A stretch of DNA of 11,577 nucleotides, taken from the IMG/VR virus record IMGVR_UViG_3300018477_000015, positions 1-11,577 of that record; one strand, 5' to 3'. Positions 317 to 10,632 of this stretch are shown in pieces. The stretch comes from a virus (taxonomy: Duplodnaviria > Heunggongvirae > Uroviricota > Caudoviricetes). The notes under the pieces were generated by a model. It was not told where the DNA came from, made no database searches, and saw nothing but the letters and a program-made list of their open reading frames with translations. The first letter of the stretch is position 1. Each line of letters begins with the position of its first letter. The position numbers and the translations under genes were made by a program.

Positions 317-623
317 AAAAACCGGTATTTGTTACCTGATCATCCACGATCATTGAAACGTGAACATTATTAGGTGTGCTCTCGTAATCTGTTCTTATTC
401 TTTCCGCGATACTGATAAAACGTGAAAGTTTAGGCAGTGCAATTGGGTAAACGACTTTAGCCAGTCCATTATCATTAGACCCACCCGTTCCAAAGACTTC
501 TATTGCACCATCTGACCAGCGAATCCATGCACCATTGGCATTAGCTCCTCGCTGAATGATATATCTGGCTTCTCCCAAACCAACGTTTATGAAAATGCAG
601 AAATAACGATCAAATGGCATCAT
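240..623 (-). CDS. side tail fibre C-terminal receptor-binding segment, alternate unfused copy reading inward through the inversion crossover site
   Basis: The C-terminal portion resembles lambda Stf-type fibre tips by eye (YPIALP, VTNTGF, terminal WRVYCAPV versus lambda IRVMAIGY from memory). The ORF runs through the 26-bp crossover site at 570-595 and has no convincing RBS, as expected for a variable fibre segment expressed only after inversion fuses it to the constant part. Confidence 0.5.
   Translation of the reverse strand: MMPFDRYFCIFINVGLGEARYIIQRGANANGAWIRWSDGAIEVFGTGGSNDNGLAKVVYPIALPKLSRFISIAERIRTDYESTPNNVHVSMIVDDQVTNTGFYARCQMYDGRPSSNAFSWRVYCAPV
570..595. other. Hin/Gin/Pin-type inversion crossover site (26 bp, two imperfect inverted 12-bp half-sites around a central AA)
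   Basis: TTCTCCCAAACC-AA-CGTTTATGAAAA. It matches my recollection of hixL (TTCTTGAAAACCAAGGTTTTTGATAA) at about 20 of 26 positions and lies 55 bp upstream of the invertase start, the usual position. Confidence 0.6.
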
Positions 624-649
624 TCCTGCTTTTGTCAGGGAGATCTACC

Positions 650-1204
650 ATGCTTATTGGCTATGTACGTGTGTCAACAAATGACCAGAACACAGATCTA
701 CAACGTAATGCGCTGAACTGTGCAGGATGCGAGCTTATTTTTGAAGACAAGATAAGCGGTACAAAGTCCGAAAGGCCGGGACTGAAAAAACTGCTCAGGA
801 CATTATCGGCAGGTGACACGCTGGTGGTCTGGAAACTGGACCGGCTGGGGCGCAGTATGCGGCATCTTGTCGTGCTGGTGGAGGAGTTGCGCGAACGAGG
901 CATCAACTTTCGTAGTCTGACTGATTCAATTGATACCAGCACACCGATGGGGCGTTTTTTCTTTCATGTGATGGGGGCCCTGGCTGAAATGGAACGAGAA
1001 CTGATTGTTGAACGAACAAAAGCTGGACTGGAAGCTGCTCGCGCACAGGGACGAATTGGTGGACGTCGTCCCAAACTTACACCAGAACAATGGGCGCAGG
1101 CCGGGCGACTAATTGCATCAGGAGTTCCTCGCCAGAAGGTGGCGATCATTTATGATGTTGGCGTATCGACTTTGTATAAGAAGTTTCCGGTCGGAGATAA
1201 ATGA
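650..1204 (+). CDS. pin: serine recombinase, DNA invertase (Pin/Hin/Gin/Cin family)
   Basis: Translation from ATG 650 begins MLIGYVRVSTNDQNTDLQRNAL... with the catalytic-serine motif and C-terminal HTH (GRIGGRRPKLT...STLYKK), near-identical in pattern to e14 Pin as I recall it. AGGGAGA sits 6 nt upstream of ATG 650. The upstream ATG at 614 would add a non-conserved extension. Confidence 0.92.
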   Translation: MLIGYVRVSTNDQNTDLQRNALNCAGCELIFEDKISGTKSERPGLKKLLRTLSAGDTLVVWKLDRLGRSMRHLVVLVEELRERGINFRSLTDSIDTSTPMGRFFFHVMGALAEMERELIVERTKAGLEAARAQGRIGGRRPKLTPEQWAQAGRLIASGVPRQKVAIIYDVGVSTLYKKFPVGDK

Positions 1205-1284: not shown

Positions 1285-1932
1285 CTATGAAGCTAATTTG
1301 TTTAATTTCATTTGTAGTGACTTTACTTCTTGGTCGATAATGTCGAATCCCTTATTGACAGCATCTCTTAGCTCTGCATCAATATTTTTTATCCCTTGAG
1401 CATAATCTACCATTACATTTATTTTTGCATCATGTAATCTCTTATACATGGTTTTATCTTTGTTATTGTCTGCCATGCCAATAAGGATTTTTTCATAATC
1501 CTCAATGAGTTTGTTGTTTCCTTTAAATGATTGTATTAATGAGCGTGAATATGTGTATATGTTAATTATTGAGTCTCTAGCAGAATCATTTAGTTTTGCA
1601 ATGACATTCGCATTTTTCTCATAGAATGTGAAATTATCATCCCCTACAGGGAATGTGAGAATCAACATTTGTCCCGGTTTTATATTATCAATGTGTGTTT
1701 TCATCCTTTTATTATATAAATTGATTAGGGTGAAAACTTCTCCCTTAACTCCTTTTAATACTGAAAGTTGTAATTCAAGGGATTCTCTTTCTGTCTCTAC
1801 TTTAGACAGCTTAGCTTGTTGGGTAACTCCTTTTAGGGTAAACCATCCGCCAATAAGAGTACCAACTAGAGCTGTGAGGGAGGAGGATAACCATCCAGGT
1901 ATGCTATTTAAAAGATTACTAAATTCACTCAT
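1285..1932 (-). CDS. hypothetical membrane-anchored protein (single N-terminal TM helix, then coiled-coil and globular region); AT-rich accessory gene
   Basis: 215-aa ORF. Residues about 10-32 (IPGWLSSSLTALVGTLIGGWFTL) are hydrophobic, followed by a charged heptad-like stretch. Low GC compared with flanking phage genes. No family recognised. Confidence 0.6.
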   Translation of the reverse strand: MSEFSNLLNSIPGWLSSSLTALVGTLIGGWFTLKGVTQQAKLSKVETERESLELQLSVLKGVKGEVFTLINLYNKRMKTHIDNIKPGQMLILTFPVGDDNFTFYEKNANVIAKLNDSARDSIINIYTYSRSLIQSFKGNNKLIEDYEKILIGMADNNKDKTMYKRLHDAKINVMVDYAQGIKNIDAELRDAVNKGFDIIDQEVKSLQMKLNKLAS

Positions 1933-2670: not shown

Positions 2671-2732
2671 CCCGTAGAAAAGACTTGTATGTGTGTGCTT
2701 GTTTTCTGCGCCTACGCAGATAAGGATTGAGA

Positions 2733-4130
2733 ATGCCGCGCACTGTAACACATAATCCGGATAGCCCCAATAATGACGATGTTTTAGCCGCATCTGAAAA
2801 ATGGGACGCCTGTAAACCCCCCTATACCAGCGCACACATGAAAATCTGTGTTGCTGCCGCCAAAATCATCCTCGCTGCTTCCGGCGTGGCTCGCCGTTCC
2901 AAATACGAAAAAGAGAACTATCTCCGTATCGATTTCAGCAAAGCCGGTAAGGTTACATTTTACGCCGAGTTTCCAAAAAAGATGGGCCTCAAAGGTAAAA
3001 AGCTCGGCGAGTGGCCGGAGCTCGCTATTCAGCTGGCGCGCGAAAAAGCGCTAGGTATGGCTGACGGTGGCCTGCGTGCAGAGTCCGTACATGCAGCGCT
3101 GGAAATGTACCGGGATGACCTCAAAGCCAAAGTCGCCCGGCAGAAGCTGAGCCCGGACAGTTTCACAACCTACGGGGTGCGTATCGACCGGATTAAAGCA
3201 ACGTTCGGCGAGCGCGAGGTGTTCAGCGACGTAACATACAATCGGCTGGTGGAAGTGCTGGACGAGTGGATCGCTACTCGCTCGAACAATAACGCCCTGG
3301 AGTTGTTTGCCGAGCTCCGTCGGTTCTGGAAGTTCTGCGCACCTACTCTTTGCAACGGCCGCAATGTTGCCGCCAGTCTGCCAGATGATTATGTTTCCTC
3401 CCGCGTACAGAAACCTACCCCCACACGGCTTTTTACCGATATTGAATCAATCGCCCGACTCTGGCTCAATGTTGCTGCCTGCACCTCTGTACACCAGAAG
3501 AATGCTGTTCGCTTCATGATCATCACTGGTGTTCGTCCGATTAATGTCCATAACCTGCGCTGGGACTACGTTCACGAGGAGGCTGGTGAAATTGTTTATC
3601 CGGAAGGGGTTATCGGCATGCGAGGGGCTATGAAAACACAAAAGGCTTTCCGCCTGCCGATAACCCCTGAGATCCGGCGGATTATCGACGAGCAGAAAGC
3701 CTGGCGTGATTCAGTTCCTGAGTGCAACAGGGATTATGTATTTTTGCAGCCACGTGATCCAATGCAGCCATTTTCAAAACGATCACTAGATAAGCTGGTG
3801 AAAACATACAGCCCGGACGGGGCTGTAAAAGGAATAAAACATGATGGGACTGTTAAAGGGAAAGACGGTGCATTTAATACGATGTGCCGTAAATTCCTTA
3901 AGAGCAATGTTATTGCCTTGATGAAGGAAAGAGGCTATTCCCGCTCAGACCGAAGGGAAATCAGCCTCCTTTGCCTTCACCACTCCAGCAAGTCAGATGA
4001 CCCGATGGCAGAACATTACGACTTTTCTGATGAGATTTTACAGGAAGAGATTGCGTTGAAGCGCGAAGCTTTCGAGGCTCACGAGCGGAGCATACTTGCG
4101 CAGGTGGCATTGCTACGGCGGCGAGGTTAA
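2733..4130 (+). CDS. int: tyrosine-type site-specific integrase (P4-like, with N-terminal arm-binding-type domain)
   Basis: 465 aa from ATG 2733, with AAGGA 6 nt upstream; the track's 2727 start is a TTG. The N-terminus (YLRIDFSKAGKVTFYAEF...LGEWPELAIQLAREKA) fits the P4-int arm-binding pattern. The catalytic-domain landmarks are TGVRPINV (Arg), HDGTVKG and CLHHSS...AEHY (His/Tyr region). Confidence 0.85.
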   Translation: MPRTVTHNPDSPNNDDVLAASEKWDACKPPYTSAHMKICVAAAKIILAASGVARRSKYEKENYLRIDFSKAGKVTFYAEFPKKMGLKGKKLGEWPELAIQLAREKALGMADGGLRAESVHAALEMYRDDLKAKVARQKLSPDSFTTYGVRIDRIKATFGEREVFSDVTYNRLVEVLDEWIATRSNNNALELFAELRRFWKFCAPTLCNGRNVAASLPDDYVSSRVQKPTPTRLFTDIESIARLWLNVAACTSVHQKNAVRFMIITGVRPINVHNLRWDYVHEEAGEIVYPEGVIGMRGAMKTQKAFRLPITPEIRRIIDEQKAWRDSVPECNRDYVFLQPRDPMQPFSKRSLDKLVKTYSPDGAVKGIKHDGTVKGKDGAFNTMCRKFLKSNVIALMKERGYSRSDRREISLLCLHHSSKSDDPMAEHYDFSDEILQEEIALKREAFEAHERSILAQVALLRRRG

Positions 4131-5780: not shown

Positions 5781-6698
5781 TTATAATAGTGCTGTTACTA
5801 TTGCATCTTTAAAAATATTTTCTTCTTCATTTATTAAAGGTGATGACAGATGAATAATTACTTCTTTTCCTGTCAATACTATTTGCTCGACTTGAAATCC
5901 TGCGTTGTGTAGTCTTTGGCGTAACTTTTCTAGTGCTGATTTTGATATACTAAATCCTTCACTCCTTATAGTATAACTGGCAACTCCATTTTTAATAATA
6001 TCTACAGAGTTGTCAATTTCCTGCTGCGAGTAATTTTTCGGTGAGTCGAAAAATCTGGATTTTGTCGTTGCTGTTGCCCTAAGAGATATCAATAATGATT
6101 TGATATCTTTAATCTCAGATGCCAGATACTCAGTTTCTGATACTTCTTTCTGGTCTAGTTGTGCAACTTTGAAAGTGCCAAAATGTTTGAGGAATGTTGT
6201 GTATTCAGGATCAGTTACTGACTTTAAATATGTTTCTTTTATCTTGCTCGCAAGTCTTTCTTTGAATAAATTGATTGATTGGTATCTTAAATCCGAAGGG
6301 TACTCTAAATGTTCAATTGATGAAATGTCAAAGCTATAAGGAGTGCGCTCGTCCTTAATAATTACGGTCGGTTTGTCAAATGCGAGACGCATTCCTAATT
6401 CAAACATTACATTAGCGTTTCGAGCACTTATATCGCAAACAACTATGGGGTTTTCATAAAGATTTTGAACAATTCGTTTTTGTATTACTGCAACATCATC
6501 ATCTGAACTTACCAAATTTGCCTTGAATCCGGCATCATTTGATGCTTCACAAATAATGTCATGAACATTTCTCCAATGTCCAGTGGGATAACCTTCTATG
6601 TCCGCAATTGGCATAATAATGCCGCATATATGAGGTGGCATATTTTTGTTGTCTTTTACATCATCTTGGTTTATTTCTTTCGTTTGTTGCTTAGCCAT
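5781..6698 (-). CDS. hypothetical protein with N-terminal TIR-like / nucleoside 2-deoxyribosyltransferase-like (Rossmannoid) domain and uncharacterised C-terminal domain; AT-rich insertion
   Basis: 305 aa. N-terminal region has ICGIIMPIA, then DDDVAVIQKRIVQNLYENPIVVCDISARNANVMFELGMRLAFDKPTVIIKDE and EYPSDLRY. The FE(L)G acidic motif after a buried strand is typical of TIR-like (PF10137-type) and NDT-like folds as I recall them. GC content is clearly lower than in the flanking helicase and VRR-NUC genes. Confidence 0.5.
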   Translation of the reverse strand: MAKQQTKEINQDDVKDNKNMPPHICGIIMPIADIEGYPTGHWRNVHDIICEASNDAGFKANLVSSDDDVAVIQKRIVQNLYENPIVVCDISARNANVMFELGMRLAFDKPTVIIKDERTPYSFDISSIEHLEYPSDLRYQSINLFKERLASKIKETYLKSVTDPEYTTFLKHFGTFKVAQLDQKEVSETEYLASEIKDIKSLLISLRATATTKSRFFDSPKNYSQQEIDNSVDIIKNGVASYTIRSEGFSISKSALEKLRQRLHNAGFQVEQIVLTGKEVIIHLSSPLINEEENIFKDAIVTALL

Positions 6699-6713
6699 AG
6701 CTTACACAGACTC

Positions 6714-6998
6714 CTATTGTAATTTTTTGCCTAATATACATGAAAGCTCCTTACTATCCAGTACTACCACGGTAAAGCCCAGTTTTCGCAGACGTTCATG
6801 CTCGCGCAACTGATCAGGTCGTGGTGGTTTGCCTGGTGCTTTGCATTCGACAAAGACGATGCGACCGCCGGGTAGCAGAACAATGCGATCTGGTACCGAG
6901 CGGAGACCGGGAGATACGAACTTAAAAGCAACCCCGCCAGCCTTTTTTACTTCAGCGACGAGGTGCTTTTCGATTAGGTTTTCACGTTCATAGGCCAT
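6714..6998 (-). CDS. VRR-NUC domain nuclease (PD-(D/E)xK family)
   Basis: 94 aa. GLRSVPDRIVLLPGGRIVFVECKAPGKPPRPDQ contains the D...E-x-K signature in the size and arrangement typical of VRR-NUC, a usual partner of phage SNF2 helicases. Confidence 0.8.
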   Translation of the reverse strand: MAYERENLIEKHLVAEVKKAGGVAFKFVSPGLRSVPDRIVLLPGGRIVFVECKAPGKPPRPDQLREHERLRKLGFTVVVLDSKELSCILGKKLQ

Positions 6999-7192
6999 TA
7001 GCTTTCGCCTTCCTGCTTTTTGCGTTTCTTCATGCAGATAGCGCAGTTCTCAGGATGGTCATGCCATTCGTCAATCCTGATACCTGTGAACATCCATTTT
7101 CCGCATAGTGATATGGCTTCCCCCGAATTAAAGAAATGTGCTTTTTTCGACAGGGCGGGGAACCCCCAACCTTTATTATCGATATTAGACAT
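6998..7192 (-). CDS. small putative zinc-binding protein (64 aa), translationally coupled to the VRR-NUC gene
   Basis: Strong SD (AAGGAGG, 6 nt before ATG 7192). Its stop overlaps the VRR-NUC start (TAATG at 6996-7000). Contains a C-x13-H-x-H-x4-C-x2-C motif (SLCGKW...EWHDHPENCAIC). Confidence 0.55.
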   Translation of the reverse strand: MSNIDNKGWGFPALSKKAHFFNSGEAISLCGKWMFTGIRIDEWHDHPENCAICMKKRKKQEGES

Positions 7193-7370
7193 CGTCCACC
7201 TCCTTACGCTTTTCGCGCATGTTCTGCATCAGACAAAAATCAAACCGACGTTCGCTTTGGCCCAGACCTGCATCGCCCGGTCGTACCCGCTGGACTGTTC
7301 AAGGCGCAAAGCCTCCCGCGCAGTCCGGTAATAAAGCGGACTGTCCCGGTATTTAAATGACATAGGGTTT

Positions 7371-7403
7371 TTATTCCCAAATAAAAAACCCCGCAATGCA
7401 GGG
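7371..7403 (-). terminator. rho-independent terminator downstream of the 253-aa gene (minus-strand sense)
   Basis: Minus-strand RNA forms CCCUGC-AUU-GCGGGG (6-bp stem with one G-U pair) followed by UUUUUUAUUU. It lies about 24 nt after the stop at 7428. Confidence 0.5.
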
Positions 7404-7427
7404 TTGTAATCAACAATAAGGGGGTAA

Positions 7428-8189
7428 TTACGAGGAAGCGTTAGCTATTTGAGCTTGTGTAAATTCGAAACCAGAATTTTGTAACCGTTGCACTAGACGA
7501 GGAACTGTTTCACGTACATGGTCGTTGAAATTCAGATACAAAATCCCGTTAGCATCAGAAGGCTGTTCTAGGTGCTGTTTCTGAAGGATTGCTACATTGC
7601 TGCGCCCTAAGGACGAAAGAAGCATACCCATCTCGAGTACAACGTTCTGTCTTGCGCGGGGTTGGATTTCTGCTTCACCGGCGCGCTTTGAGTATCCCAT
7701 ATCATCAGGTGTCAAAAGAACAATCCCGAAACGGGTAGCAGTTTGTCCTTGCCCAATTTCACGTTCAAGCTCTTCAATAATGGTGAGTCCAGTCCCTCCC
7801 GTATTCTGCAAAATGAAATGGTCTGGTAATCCAAGTTTATGAAGGATTAGCTCAAGTTGTTCCTTTGCAGTATGGTCATGGCCGTGAACAATGAATATCT
7901 TTTTGGGAAGCTCAGATGGCTGTTCTACGGCTAGTGGTGTTGCCGTGGGGGGCGTTCCTAAATGGGACATTATTGCAGTTTCAACATTGGGACGTTCTTG
8001 AGGGTTACCTTGAAACTGAATGGTCCGGGTGGTGTAAAGGTTAACAATTACGCCATTCGTTAAACGATAGCAGTCATAAGTCTCACGCTGTTCGTGGGAA
8101 AAATTGGTGAACCCACACTCCCTCAAAAAGTCAGGAAAAGATTCTCTCGGGTATGGATAGGTGATCGGCATTTCAGTTAGTTCCTGCAT
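7428..8189 (-). CDS. TIR-like domain protein (C-terminal TIR-like/NDT-like Rossmannoid domain, uncharacterised N-terminal domain of about 95 aa)
   Basis: 253 aa. C-terminal half has KIFIVHGHD, then FGIVLLTPDDMG...PRARQNVVLEMGMLLSSLGRSNVAILQK and QPSDANGILYLNF, the same motif order as the 305-aa protein and matching my recollection of the PF10137-type TIR-like family. AGGA about 10 nt upstream of ATG 8189. Followed by its own terminator. Confidence 0.55.
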   Translation of the reverse strand: MQELTEMPITYPYPRESFPDFLRECGFTNFSHEQRETYDCYRLTNGVIVNLYTTRTIQFQGNPQERPNVETAIMSHLGTPPTATPLAVEQPSELPKKIFIVHGHDHTAKEQLELILHKLGLPDHFILQNTGGTGLTIIEELEREIGQGQTATRFGIVLLTPDDMGYSKRAGEAEIQPRARQNVVLEMGMLLSSLGRSNVAILQKQHLEQPSDANGILYLNFNDHVRETVPRLVQRLQNSGFEFTQAQIANASS

Positions 8190-8253
8190 AAGTATTGTTC
8201 CTTTAATTTACTCGAATTCAGCATGTCGCCATAGCTCGATAAGGTGAGTTATA

Positions 8254-10350
8254 TCAATCTTTTTTGTAGTGGTACGCCTCAAAGCCGCCAGCGTTCAGCG
8301 GAATATCGGGTGCCCATTCGGGGTTAGTGGAGAGAAGCGCGGAAAGCGCTTTATCGTTGAAATCTTCTGTGTCTGGTGCTTCGGTGATCACCTCGTCGTG
8401 TACCGTTAGCACAATGCTGTAACCGGCACCCTCGATCAGCGGCATGTTTCTGGCCAGAACGTCGCGGGCGGCCGCCTGGGTGACGTTCTCCACCAGCTTT
8501 CCGCCGTAGGTTTTGAGTCGTTGCCATTTACGCGAATAAGAGTTAACACCCATGTAGGTGATATTCCCTTGTTCGATAACCGGAGACGGGTAGCATACAG
8601 CGCGTCCGGATGGTAGCTGTATGCGCAGCCACGCGCCATCACGTCGGATTTTAAGATAGCCGCAATACAATGTTTTTTGCGGTATGGCGATTGCTGTGCG
8701 GACAGTGCGCTCCAGCTCGTACCAGAAATCGCAGGTCGCCGGGTGCGCCCTGCGCCACAGGCGCTTGAGCGAGTCACATGCGATGAATACACGCTCGGAA
8801 AGGCCAAAGGTCGACTTACGTTTAACCGATTCGTCGTACCAGCTTTTCGCCTCGCGGATAACATCGCGGGGAATGTTTGGCAGTGCGGCGTTCGCCAGCT
8901 CGTCGAGATCGAGACCGTAAACCAGAGCAAAAGTGATGAAAGCCGATACACCACCTCCATAACCCAGACCGAGTTCCATGACTTTACCGATCTGACGCAT
9001 GTGTTTATCAACATCATCTGGTGCAATATCGAAAGCTTTTGCATACGCCAGTTTATATAAGTCCGGACCCGTTCCAGCGTCATACTCTCTGAATGCATTC
9101 AGTTTCCATTCTTCTCCCGCCAGCCATGCCAGCATACGGCCTTCAATGTTTGACAAGTCACTTACCACCAGTTTTTTGCCTGTTGGCGCGATAATGCAGC
9201 CACGTAACGCTGAACTGGTTAGTTCCATGATATTGTCAAACAGCAGGTCTGCACATCCGGCTTTCAGTGCTTCGATGCCTTCGTCTATTTGTTCCTGTTT
9301 TAGTGAAGGGCGGGGAAGGTTCTGGGGCTGGAATAGCCGTCCGGCCCAACGACCGGTACGTGACGCCCCGCAGAACTGTAGCGTACCGCGTAAGCGCCCG
9401 TCGTGGCTTACGCCTTTCATCAGTGCCTTGTATTTACTGGTGCTGGTAGTACTGGCTTGCAGGCGGATAGCCAGCAGTTCTTTCACGGCAGATGATAAAT
9501 CGGGGTCGGCCATACGACGTTCCAGGGTACTGCGTTGCATGTCTGGTAGCTCCACACCGTAGGATTCAACGATGTGCTTAATCAACGCGTCCCGTTGTGT
9601 GGCTGCCTGCACTTCGCCATCAGTCATTTCCTGTGTACGCTTTGCCAGGCGCTTTTGCTCCTGGTCTACCGCTTCGATCGCAGCGCGCGCGAGTTGCATG
9701 TCCATGCAGACGCCCCGGTCGTTGATCTGCTGATCACGATGCCAGAGCGCCAGCTCTGTCCCCTGATAATTCCACTTCGGCAGACGTTTATAGACTTCGC
9801 GCATTGCTTCGATATCCAGTCCGGCGTAAGCAACAAAGCGCCGCCATTCTTCCGGATGGGTTTTACTGGTGGCCCGACGCAGTTTGCTGTTTTTCGGATG
9901 TGGCTTACAGAACAGCTGGATCAGCGCTTTACCTTCTTTGTCCTTCGCTTTGTCTTGCGGGACGCCTAGTACTTCGCAGAGTTCCCCCAGAGACCCCGGG
10001 AGACCGTGCGCCAGCGCCTGCACCATCGTGTCGCGCCAACGTTCGACTGGCGGTGCCAGTCGCGGCATTGCATAACGCAGAACGGTGCGGTCGAAGTGAG
10101 AGTTATGGAAATAAAGCAGGGTTTCAGGGTCTGCGATTGCTTCGTATAAGCCGTGTGGAATACCACCACCGGCAGTGATATCCCACACGTTTACTGGCCC
10201 GTCGTTGATAGCCCATGCGAAAAGCATCACTTCAACGCCTTCGGCATACGCATGGGTACCGTTCGTAATAGGGATTTCGCAATAGGTTTCCAGGTCGCCC
10301 CAGAGAATACTTTGATGTTGTTTATTTGAGGGGACTATATTATTTTTCAT
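8254..10350 (-). CDS. family A DNA polymerase with N-terminal 3'-5' exonuclease domain (phage-type PolA)
   Basis: 698 aa. Exo motif LWGDLETY, polymerase motif [21 protein letters not shown], motif [17 protein letters not shown], motif C LTVHDEV. Confidence 0.9.
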
Positions 10351-10384
10351 ATGGGCAAACTAGCTAATAAAGTTGAGGAAAAAA

Positions 10385-10588
10385 ATGTCTGAATCTAAGT
10401 TCAAACCTGGAGACCGCGTACAACATCTTTCTGGTGGGCCTGTTCTTGTGGTTGTTAGCACAGGATATATTCCTGCAACAGCTTTTAATGGCGACTTCAT
10501 TCGCGTAACTTGTGAATTTTGGGATGAATCTAAAAAAGCTTTCGTAAAACAGGATTTTGTTGAAACTTCTCTTGAAGATTACGAATAA
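10385..10588 (+). CDS. DUF2158 (YodC-like) small protein
   Basis: About 67 aa from ATG 10385, with GAGGA 5 nt upstream; the track's 10373 start is a TTG. KPGDRVQHLSGGPVLVV...CEFWDESKKAFVKQDFVETSL fits the GD.V.L.SGGP...C.WFD...K..F pattern of the DUF2158 family. It lies opposite in orientation to the surrounding replication genes. Confidence 0.65.
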   Translation: MSESKFKPGDRVQHLSGGPVLVVVSTGYIPATAFNGDFIRVTCEFWDESKKAFVKQDFVETSLEDYE

Positions 10589-10604
10589 CTCATAACACAA
10601 TCCT

Positions 10605-10628
10605 CAAAGCGCCCCTAAGGGCGCTTTG
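10605..10628. terminator. bidirectional hairpin terminator between convergent genes
   Basis: Perfect 10-bp stem CAAAGCGCCC / GGGCGCTTTG with CTAA loop, followed by GCGTTT on the plus strand. It sits 17 nt after the DUF2158 stop and 4 nt after the DUF2815 stop. Confidence 0.55.
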
Positions 10629-10632
10629 GCGT

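Follow-up and report, generated by a model that had tools for sequence, protein, structure and literature searches.

A predicted TBP-like–TIR fusion protein encoded behind the DNA polymerase of an Escherichia coli temperate phage: a candidate one-protein immune module

An optional cassette in the replication module

What is the role of a TIR-like protein whose gene lies directly behind the DNA polymerase gene of a temperate phage: does it serve replication, counteract host immunity or provide immunity itself? The gene lies in a window of 11,577 nucleotides (the whole stretch of DNA that was analysed, IMG/VR record IMGVR_UViG_3300018477_000015). The region is 99.7% identical to the E. coli phages vB_EcoM-606R2, -689R2 and -611R5, whose records annotate the gene as 'TIR-like domain-containing protein', and a search of 5426 complete E. 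coli genomes gave 37 with prophages 99–100% identical to it; by these identities, the window derives from a temperate phage or a prophage of E. coli. The module is ordered as Enc34-type SSB, family A polymerase, VRR-NUC nuclease, SNF2 helicase, excisionase-like protein and integrase. The gene and its immediate surroundings are as follows:

8254–10350, minus strand: family A DNA polymerase (PolA), upstream neighbour
8190–8253, minus strand: spacer of 64 nt from the PolA stop to the ATG, with an AGGA ribosome-binding site
7428–8189, minus strand: ORF of the predicted TBP-like–TIR fusion, PADLOC PDC-S35 family (ATG to stop, 253 aa plus stop)
7377–7405, minus strand: intrinsic-terminator-like hairpin plus U-run (8-bp stem, 3-nt loop, then UUUUUUAUUU)
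7371–8252, minus strand: whole inserted cassette of 882 bp (spacer, ORF and hairpin), delimited by blastn against the TIR-less relatives L019 and L020 and by their annotation
7192–7370, minus strand: decayed gene of an ANR-family regulator, adjoining the cassette on its downstream side

The ORF is, by its matches, a real gene and no chance ORF, because it strongly matches PF10137, PDC-S35 (see below) and PHROG 16442 (of unknown function; E=1.1e-107) and because 2703 homologues were retrieved at E<=1e-3 in a search of 5.8 billion proteins, mostly about 250 aa long among the matches listed. The segments KIFIVHGHD, PRARQNVVLEMGM and QPSDANGILY are all three present in its 253-aa product.

The PolA stop codon is located at nt 8254–8256 and the TIR gene begins 64 nt on, with the AGGA ribosome-binding site 9–10 nt 5' of its ATG, while the G+C-rich hairpin (nt 7405–7387) begins 22 nt past its stop. 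The original prediction, that the gene is bracketed by the PolA stop and a rho-independent terminator, therefore stands for the positions and the canonical form of the hairpin, which is however statistically unexceptional (one site versus 2.0 expected in shuffles, fold z-score of −1.2). No sigma-70-like promoter for the TIR gene was found at the scan threshold between nt 6900 and 8600, nor did reading the 64-nt spacer by eye give any good −35/−10 pair, so that expression may be restricted to the lytic replication operon.

Comparison by blastn with the TIR-less relatives gave exact cassette boundaries: homology ends at nt 8253, at the PolA stop codon, and restarts at nt 7370, and the cassette takes the place of ≈206 bp carrying a gene for a 67-aa hypothetical protein. 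Its G+C content is about 0.45 versus about 0.55 in PolA. The adjacent ANR gene is 73% identical to intact copies, carries a deletion of about 40 nt and is annotated as frameshifted in strain Rb-50. In TIR-less genomes the order is PolA, 67-aa hypothetical protein, ANR regulator, DUF4406 or methyltransferase and VRR-NUC, the PolA-to-VRR-NUC interval being variable in content (DUF4406, SAM-dependent methyltransferase, DUF7446, YfbU or Ant). Among the 159 complete E. coli genomes with a related polymerase module, the TIR gene is present in 37 and absent from 122. The gene occupies a variable slot of the replication module as an optional cassette; the view of a discrete accessory unit riding on the replication operon is borne out by the exact boundaries and by this co-occurrence count with PolA modules, and the orthologues are no conserved core replication factors.

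Outside these E. coli genomes, homologues were found in the following contexts:

Serratia, 70% identity: related prophages, same slot
Providencia, 63% identity: related prophages, same slot
Salmonella, 57% identity: same phage type, different slot
Vibrio, about 50–55% identity: integrative island
Mrr/PemK island, about 50–55% identity: next to an integrase, an Mrr nuclease and a PemK toxin
Guyparkeria, about 50–55% identity: next to IS elements

No conserved neighbour of the distant homologues (about 50–55% identical) was detected in the contexts examined. As the gene is missing from 122 of the 159 related E. coli prophages and its distant homologues are partnerless, a role as core replication factor was rejected. 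A conserved small upstream partner or antitoxin was discarded as well: the upstream ORFs of the Vibrio and Mrr/PemK islands are mutually unrelated and absent here, and no antitoxin gene is evident beside the 253-aa gene.

The TIR domain and its known relatives

By sequence comparison, the 253-aa protein is a member of both Pfam family PF10137 and the PADLOC candidate system PDC-S35. PF10137 scored 108.4 bits versus a cut-off of 24.7 (E=2.9e-31), with profile positions 1–118 of 119 aligned to residues 97–222, and the PDC-S35 HMM PDLC05003 scored 360 bits (E=1.3e-108), residues 10–253 falling on profile positions 3–245 of 245. PDC-S35, a candidate made up of one gene, has the two-domain layout of the 253-aa protein and does not differ from it structurally; the family had already been catalogued. 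It is one of 145 predicted candidate systems and comes from the 'guilt by embedding' approach, in which candidates are drawn from genes lying inside BREX, DISARM or type I RM systems (Payne et al., bioRxiv 10.1101/2024.01.29.577857). Our literature search retrieved no paper on PDC-S35 or on a TBP-like–TIR fusion; a cold-seep study tested other PDC systems, PDC-S35 not being among them, and a paper on defence prediction by language models contained nothing on PDC-S35.

The features of the C-terminal part are:

7431–7901, minus strand: aa 97–253, CAP12/Pycsar-clade TIR domain, predicted NADase effector (PF10137, profile search and Foldseek)
7632–7652, minus strand: R180-Q-N182-V-V-L-E186 motif, aligned to R78-D-N80-V-V-F-E84 of SfSTING
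7554–7556, minus strand: D212 of a P-S-D motif, aligned to D110 of P-T-D110 in SfSTING

A profile built from 40 homologues matched only three distinct PDB sequences, namely those of the Cap12 TIR-STING structures 7un8 (E=1.8e-4) and 9lmq and of PycTIR 8jsj. The AlphaFold model, with a pLDDT of 75 overall and of 53–89 in the TIR part (moderate confidence), had its best Foldseek matches with TIR-STING (E down to 2e-5, TIR identity of about 20–24%), followed by SPARTA TIR domains, and the BFVD viral library returned weak TIR-like matches only, from giant viruses. The TIR-like fold first proposed for the C-terminus thus finds agreement in the Pfam match, the Cap12/PycTIR profile matches and the Foldseek comparison with TIR-STING.

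R180, N182, E186 and D212 are invariant in 40/40 homologues. In the filament structure of SfSTING, the equivalent E84, on helix alphaC, is catalytic, R78 and N80 hold the substrate, and D110 enters the neighbouring TIR completing the active site there (PMC9402430). From the TIR-STING matches and the four invariant aligned residues we infer, on good grounds, that the domain would be a competent NAD+ hydrolase activated by assembly; D212 might, by analogy, act in trans.

With Cap12 (TIR-STING; SfSTING 7UN8 and 9LMQ) the protein shares the Pfam TIR family, the equivalents of R78, N80, E84 and D110 and, probably, activation by TIR packing. The sensor of Cap12 is however a C-terminal STING domain, whereas here it would be an N-terminal TBP-like domain, and there is no CD-NTase operon; the NCBIfam Cap12 equivalogs NF050171 and NF050172 scored 34.8 and 30.5 bits versus a cut-off of 450. 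PycTIR (8JSJ) belongs to the same TIR clade (PADLOC E=1e-8) and has its TIR C-terminal behind a sensor, as here, but the TIR part alone matches, and the 253-aa protein has neither a cNMP-binding sensor nor an adjacent pyrimidine cyclase. As to the ThsB-type TIR of Thoeris, no match to PF08937 was obtained, and the neighbours are PolA and the ANR remnant, with no ThsA (SIR2/Macro-SLOG). Identity with CBASS Cap12, PycTIR or ThsB was rejected for want of a cyclase, a matching sensor domain or a partner gene. Paralogy with the neighbouring 305-aa protein was also rejected, as hhalign gave only a 21-residue similarity over a C-terminal helix (probability 9%).

The N-terminal domain, its linker and its other effectors

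Upstream of the TIR domain, the original prediction had placed an N-terminal domain of about 95 aa that it could not assign. A separate domain is indeed predicted, but the folded part is smaller, ≈70 aa followed by a disordered linker:

7959–8165, minus strand: aa 9–77, N-terminal TBP-like domain, putative sensor, with beta-alpha-beta4-alpha topology
7902–7958, minus strand: aa 78–96, disordered Pro/Thr/Ala-rich linker of ~19 aa, with pLDDT <50

The segment aa 9–77 scored a pLDDT above 90 both in the full-length AlphaFold (AF2) model and when modelled alone, with AF2 values spanning 87–95, and was predicted to adopt a monopartite beta-alpha-beta4-alpha helix-grip fold. [quoted passage not shown] The top three PDB matches of the N-domain profile, all weak, were RNase HIII (E=0.022), LsoA (0.12) and RNase H3 (0.53), and the strand motif Y-x-[ST]-G-x-x-x-x-Q-G-K is common to the three alignments; the domain of the 253-aa protein carries the motif NLY52..T54xT56xQxQ60G61. 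Pfam RnlA_toxin matched below its gathering score, with E=0.034 on the 253-aa protein and 8.5e-4 on the homologue P0104. As these individually weak structural and sequence lines converge, the domain, previously considered unplaceable, is a probable homologue of the TBP-like domains of the RNase HIII/RnlA type.

The mean pairwise identity is 75% in the TIR domain, 35% in the N-domain and 19% in the linker, whose length among homologues ranges from 10 to 33 aa. A slowly evolving effector joined by a flexible tether to a fast-evolving N-domain is the pattern expected of an immune sensor-effector.

Regarding the ligand, the RNase H3 N-domain binds the RNA/DNA hybrid across the minor groove, with Tyr43 and His28 stacking on deoxyriboses and Glu27 and Gly52 contacting 2'-OH groups (PMC4132731), and the first TBP-like domain of RnlA (TBP1) is required for substrate binding (PMC8266594). 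The equivalent of Tyr43, Y52, is aromatic in 40/40 sequences and that of Gly52, G61, is invariant in 40/40, whereas the Glu27/His28 positions show no conservation in the 40-sequence alignment. Charge was rejected as support for hybrid binding, since the N-domains are not basic (mean net charge of −1.4, near neutral, versus +6 in the RNase H3 N-domain). Given the near-neutral charge and the unconserved Glu27/His28 positions, the ligand is perhaps other than nucleic acid; by analogy nucleic-acid binding is possible, and a protein ligand is equally open.

The fusion partners also differ from those of the known TBP-like domains. The strongly basic N-domain of RNase HIII (Ta-RNase H3 4PY5, Aae-RNase H3 3VN5) is joined to RNase H and not to a TIR, and the anti-phage toxins RnlA/LsoA combine two TBP domains (TBP1/TBP2) with a HEPN RNase, whereas one TBP-like domain and a predicted TIR NADase are found here.

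In a search of 1.84 billion representative proteins, the N-domain profile gave 819 matches, and about half of the longer ones carry a TIR. Among the others, protein P0248 combines the N-domain of PDC-S35 (E=1.2e-12) with the anti-phage dCTP deaminase (PADLOC dCTPase, E=7e-173), and the truncated P0235 and P0189 likewise carry it with this defence enzyme. Further arrangements include a multi-pass membrane region (P0180), a second copy in tandem (P0178) and unassigned C-terminal regions (P0188, P0197 and P0215). One N-domain swapped among effectors typical of abortive infection argues for a sensing or regulatory module, and its presence in some dCTPase members suggests that these and PDC-S35 have such a module in common, although the predicted chemistries differ (nucleotide depletion by deamination and NAD+ cleavage, respectively). 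The architecture of a sensor plus TIR in a single immune protein, as originally suggested, fits the full-length PDC-S35 match, the solitary occurrence of the gene in unrelated islands and the presence of the N-domain on other defence effectors.

Proposed role and competing explanations

Taken with its optional cassette, these observations point to an immune module of one protein that is self-contained and horizontally mobile, borne by a temperate phage as a moron and acting by abortive infection or superinfection exclusion. We give this reading a probability of about 0.6, which refers to the overall role, the mechanistic details being graded lower. The beneficiary would probably be the lysogen, protected by either of the two routes.

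A working scheme can be proposed as follows. In uninfected cells the protein would be an inactive monomer or dimer. On infection, the TBP-like domains would bind a multivalent cue. This might just as well be a phage protein as a nucleic-acid duplex, for instance the RNA/DNA hybrid that the analogy with RNase HIII and RnlA suggests. The flexible linkers would then allow the TIR domains to pack head-to-tail, so that D212 of one subunit could, in the manner of TIR-STING filaments, complete the active site of E186 in its neighbour, and the assembled TIR would hydrolyse NAD+, the infected cell ceasing to support phage growth. Trigger, ligand, oligomer, product and phenotype are in all cases those that we infer for the module. 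If this holds, the protein, with its 253 aa, would be among the smallest self-contained TIR immune proteins, and a CBASS/Pycsar-clade TIR would be fired without a cyclic-nucleotide signal, by way of a TBP-like domain so far described solely in RNase HIII and RnlA/LsoA. Knowing what this N-domain binds would then account for the triggering of several defence families together, as a dCTP deaminase and a membrane protein carry it too. The catalogued family and the conventional effector chemistry are known; the uncoupling of a Cap12-clade TIR from cyclic-nucleotide signalling and its fusion to a TBP-like module would be new.

The scheme can be extended, though we consider the extension doubtful. 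The TBP-like domain would be in this case a widespread, interchangeable infection sensor for a nucleic-acid intermediate (e.g., an RNA/DNA hybrid), whose side-by-side copies template a filament of the Cap12-clade TIR NADase, and which also gates dCTP deaminases and membrane-disrupting effectors. Were it true, a CBASS/Pycsar-type effector would be fired in a cyclase-independent, nucleic-acid-templated manner.

The absence of a detected promoter bears on the choice between readings. If the gene is expressed solely with the lytic replication operon, lysogen protection fits less well, and room is left for two rivals, counter-defence and nucleotide metabolism. According to the first, the phage TIR-like hydrolase would destroy a host immune signal or cofactor (NAD-derived or a nucleotide second messenger) during the lytic cycle, as a phage-borne gene of Enterobacterales lying in an early replication operon, probably co-transcribed with it and with no promoter of its own detected, could do. 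On the other hand, its closest characterised TIRs, Cap12 and PycTIR, are cell-killing NAD+ hydrolase effectors, the family was nominated through members embedded in host defence systems, and the N-domain is also found joined to a dCTP-deaminase defence enzyme. Moreover, many homologues lie outside phages, by Mrr/PemK or IS elements, and the gene is rare in sequenced phages: a tblastn search of 50,697 phage records returned only the three near-identical E. coli phages and one partial match. We consider counter-defence unlikely, and the evidence favours an immune over an anti-immune role.

The second rival, which we rate as just as improbable, invokes a TIR/deoxyribosyltransferase-like N-glycosidase whose substrate would be a nucleotide or nucleoside instead of NAD+, and which would adjust precursor pools or base modification to the needs of the phage polymerase. 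The gene comes directly after PolA, and the interval that it occupies holds in relatives methyltransferases or DUF4406, which we take to be a nucleoside 2-deoxyribosyltransferase-like family. Viral nucleoside 2-deoxyribosyltransferases are also found among the weak structural matches of the protein, and the SfSTING structure paper counts the hmCMP glycosylhydrolase MilB among the TIR-like proteins of common fold (PMC9402430). The best matches are nevertheless TIRs of NADases, in which the R/N/E residues and the trans-acting D are the same, and a fast-evolving, sensor-like N-domain on a flexible linker is unexpected for a housekeeping enzyme. Furthermore, the gene is dispensable in the 122 prophages that lack it, and homologues in other bacteria occur without any replication genes.

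That the protein is instead the orphan effector of a host-encoded CBASS or Pycsar system, which would not sense for itself but respond to a diffusible nucleotide, is very improbable: its TIR does belong to the Pfam family defined by the Cap12 and PycTIR effectors and PADLOC models of CBASS/Pycsar effectors match weakly (E 1e-8 to 1e-12), but no cyclase or CD-NTase was found in the window or in seven other contexts, the N-domain is predicted as TBP-like and not STING, SAVED or cNMP-binding, and the Cap12 equivalog scores (35 and 30 bits) stay far from the cut-off of 450.

The immune reading may also be viewed against a second, neighbouring variable slot of the same module, which in relatives holds SIR2, Mrr-like or DUF4145 genes; in some of them a SIR2 gene, not present in the window, is located beyond PolA at a distance of ~2 kb. 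In this E. coli prophage family, both variable slots of the replication module are sites where defence-type genes accumulate (TIR, SIR2, Mrr-like and methyltransferases).

A probable second foreign moron and a second variable slot

The G+C content is strikingly low (≈0.35, as compared with ≈0.55 in the flanks) in an ORF that looks like a second foreign moron:
5781-6698, minus strand: 305-aa ORF, with the SNF2 helicase gene on one side and the VRR-NUC nuclease gene on the other

Search of this ORF against Pfam gave no match, while a weak match with a PADLOC TIR-effector (E=1e-6, aa 54-134) and one with PHROG 3634, a family of unknown function, were found. The possibility that it is a paralogue of the 253-aa TBP-like-TIR fusion protein was considered and rejected, because the similarity detected by hhalign is limited to a 21-residue C-terminal helix.

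Between the Enc34-type SSB gene and PolA, the prophage family has a second variable slot, which in the window contains only a small ORF:
10351-10632: variable slot
10373..10588, plus strand: 71-aa ORF

In E. coli relatives the slot is occupied by a 493-aa SIR2-family gene (L012 12707-14188; L020, a relative lacking the TIR gene, 6308-7789), in Serratia by a DUF4145 protein (L010 4958-5653) and in Providencia by an Mrr-like nuclease (L017 3967-4863).

Genes downstream of the cassette

Downstream of the hairpin in the cassette of the 253-aa protein, two features were detected:
7192-7370, minus strand: remnant of an ANR-family regulator gene, immediately following the hairpin
6998-7192, minus strand: 64-aa ORF, PHROG 2358 (unknown function)

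The ANR remnant, annotated as a frameshifted pseudogene in E. coli strain Rb-50, shows 73% identity and a deletion of ≈40 nt when compared with the intact copies of prophages without the TIR gene. The position of the 64-aa ORF holds a DUF4406 or a class I SAM methyltransferase in the TIR-less relatives, thus indicating that the interval is variable at this point too.

The left end of the window

Positions 1-2700 are part of a different element than the prophage. Besides short tail-fibre-like ORFs, this region contains the first two of the following features, and its ORFs are adjoined by the third:
614..1204, plus strand: Hin/Pin-type serine invertase ORF
1285..1932, minus strand: 215-aa orphan ORF, with no match in the family search
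2727..4130, plus strand: prophage integrase

In strain Rb-50, the counterpart of the integrase adjoins yfhL and not the left-end element.

Neighbours of distant homologues

Islands harbouring distant homologues of the 253-aa protein also contain other defence-like genes, namely an SMC/AAA_13-type ATPase gene in a Vibrio island (L002 2158-4755) and, in the island of another genome, the genes of an Mrr nuclease and of a PemK toxin (L006 8815-9714 and 13130-13486).
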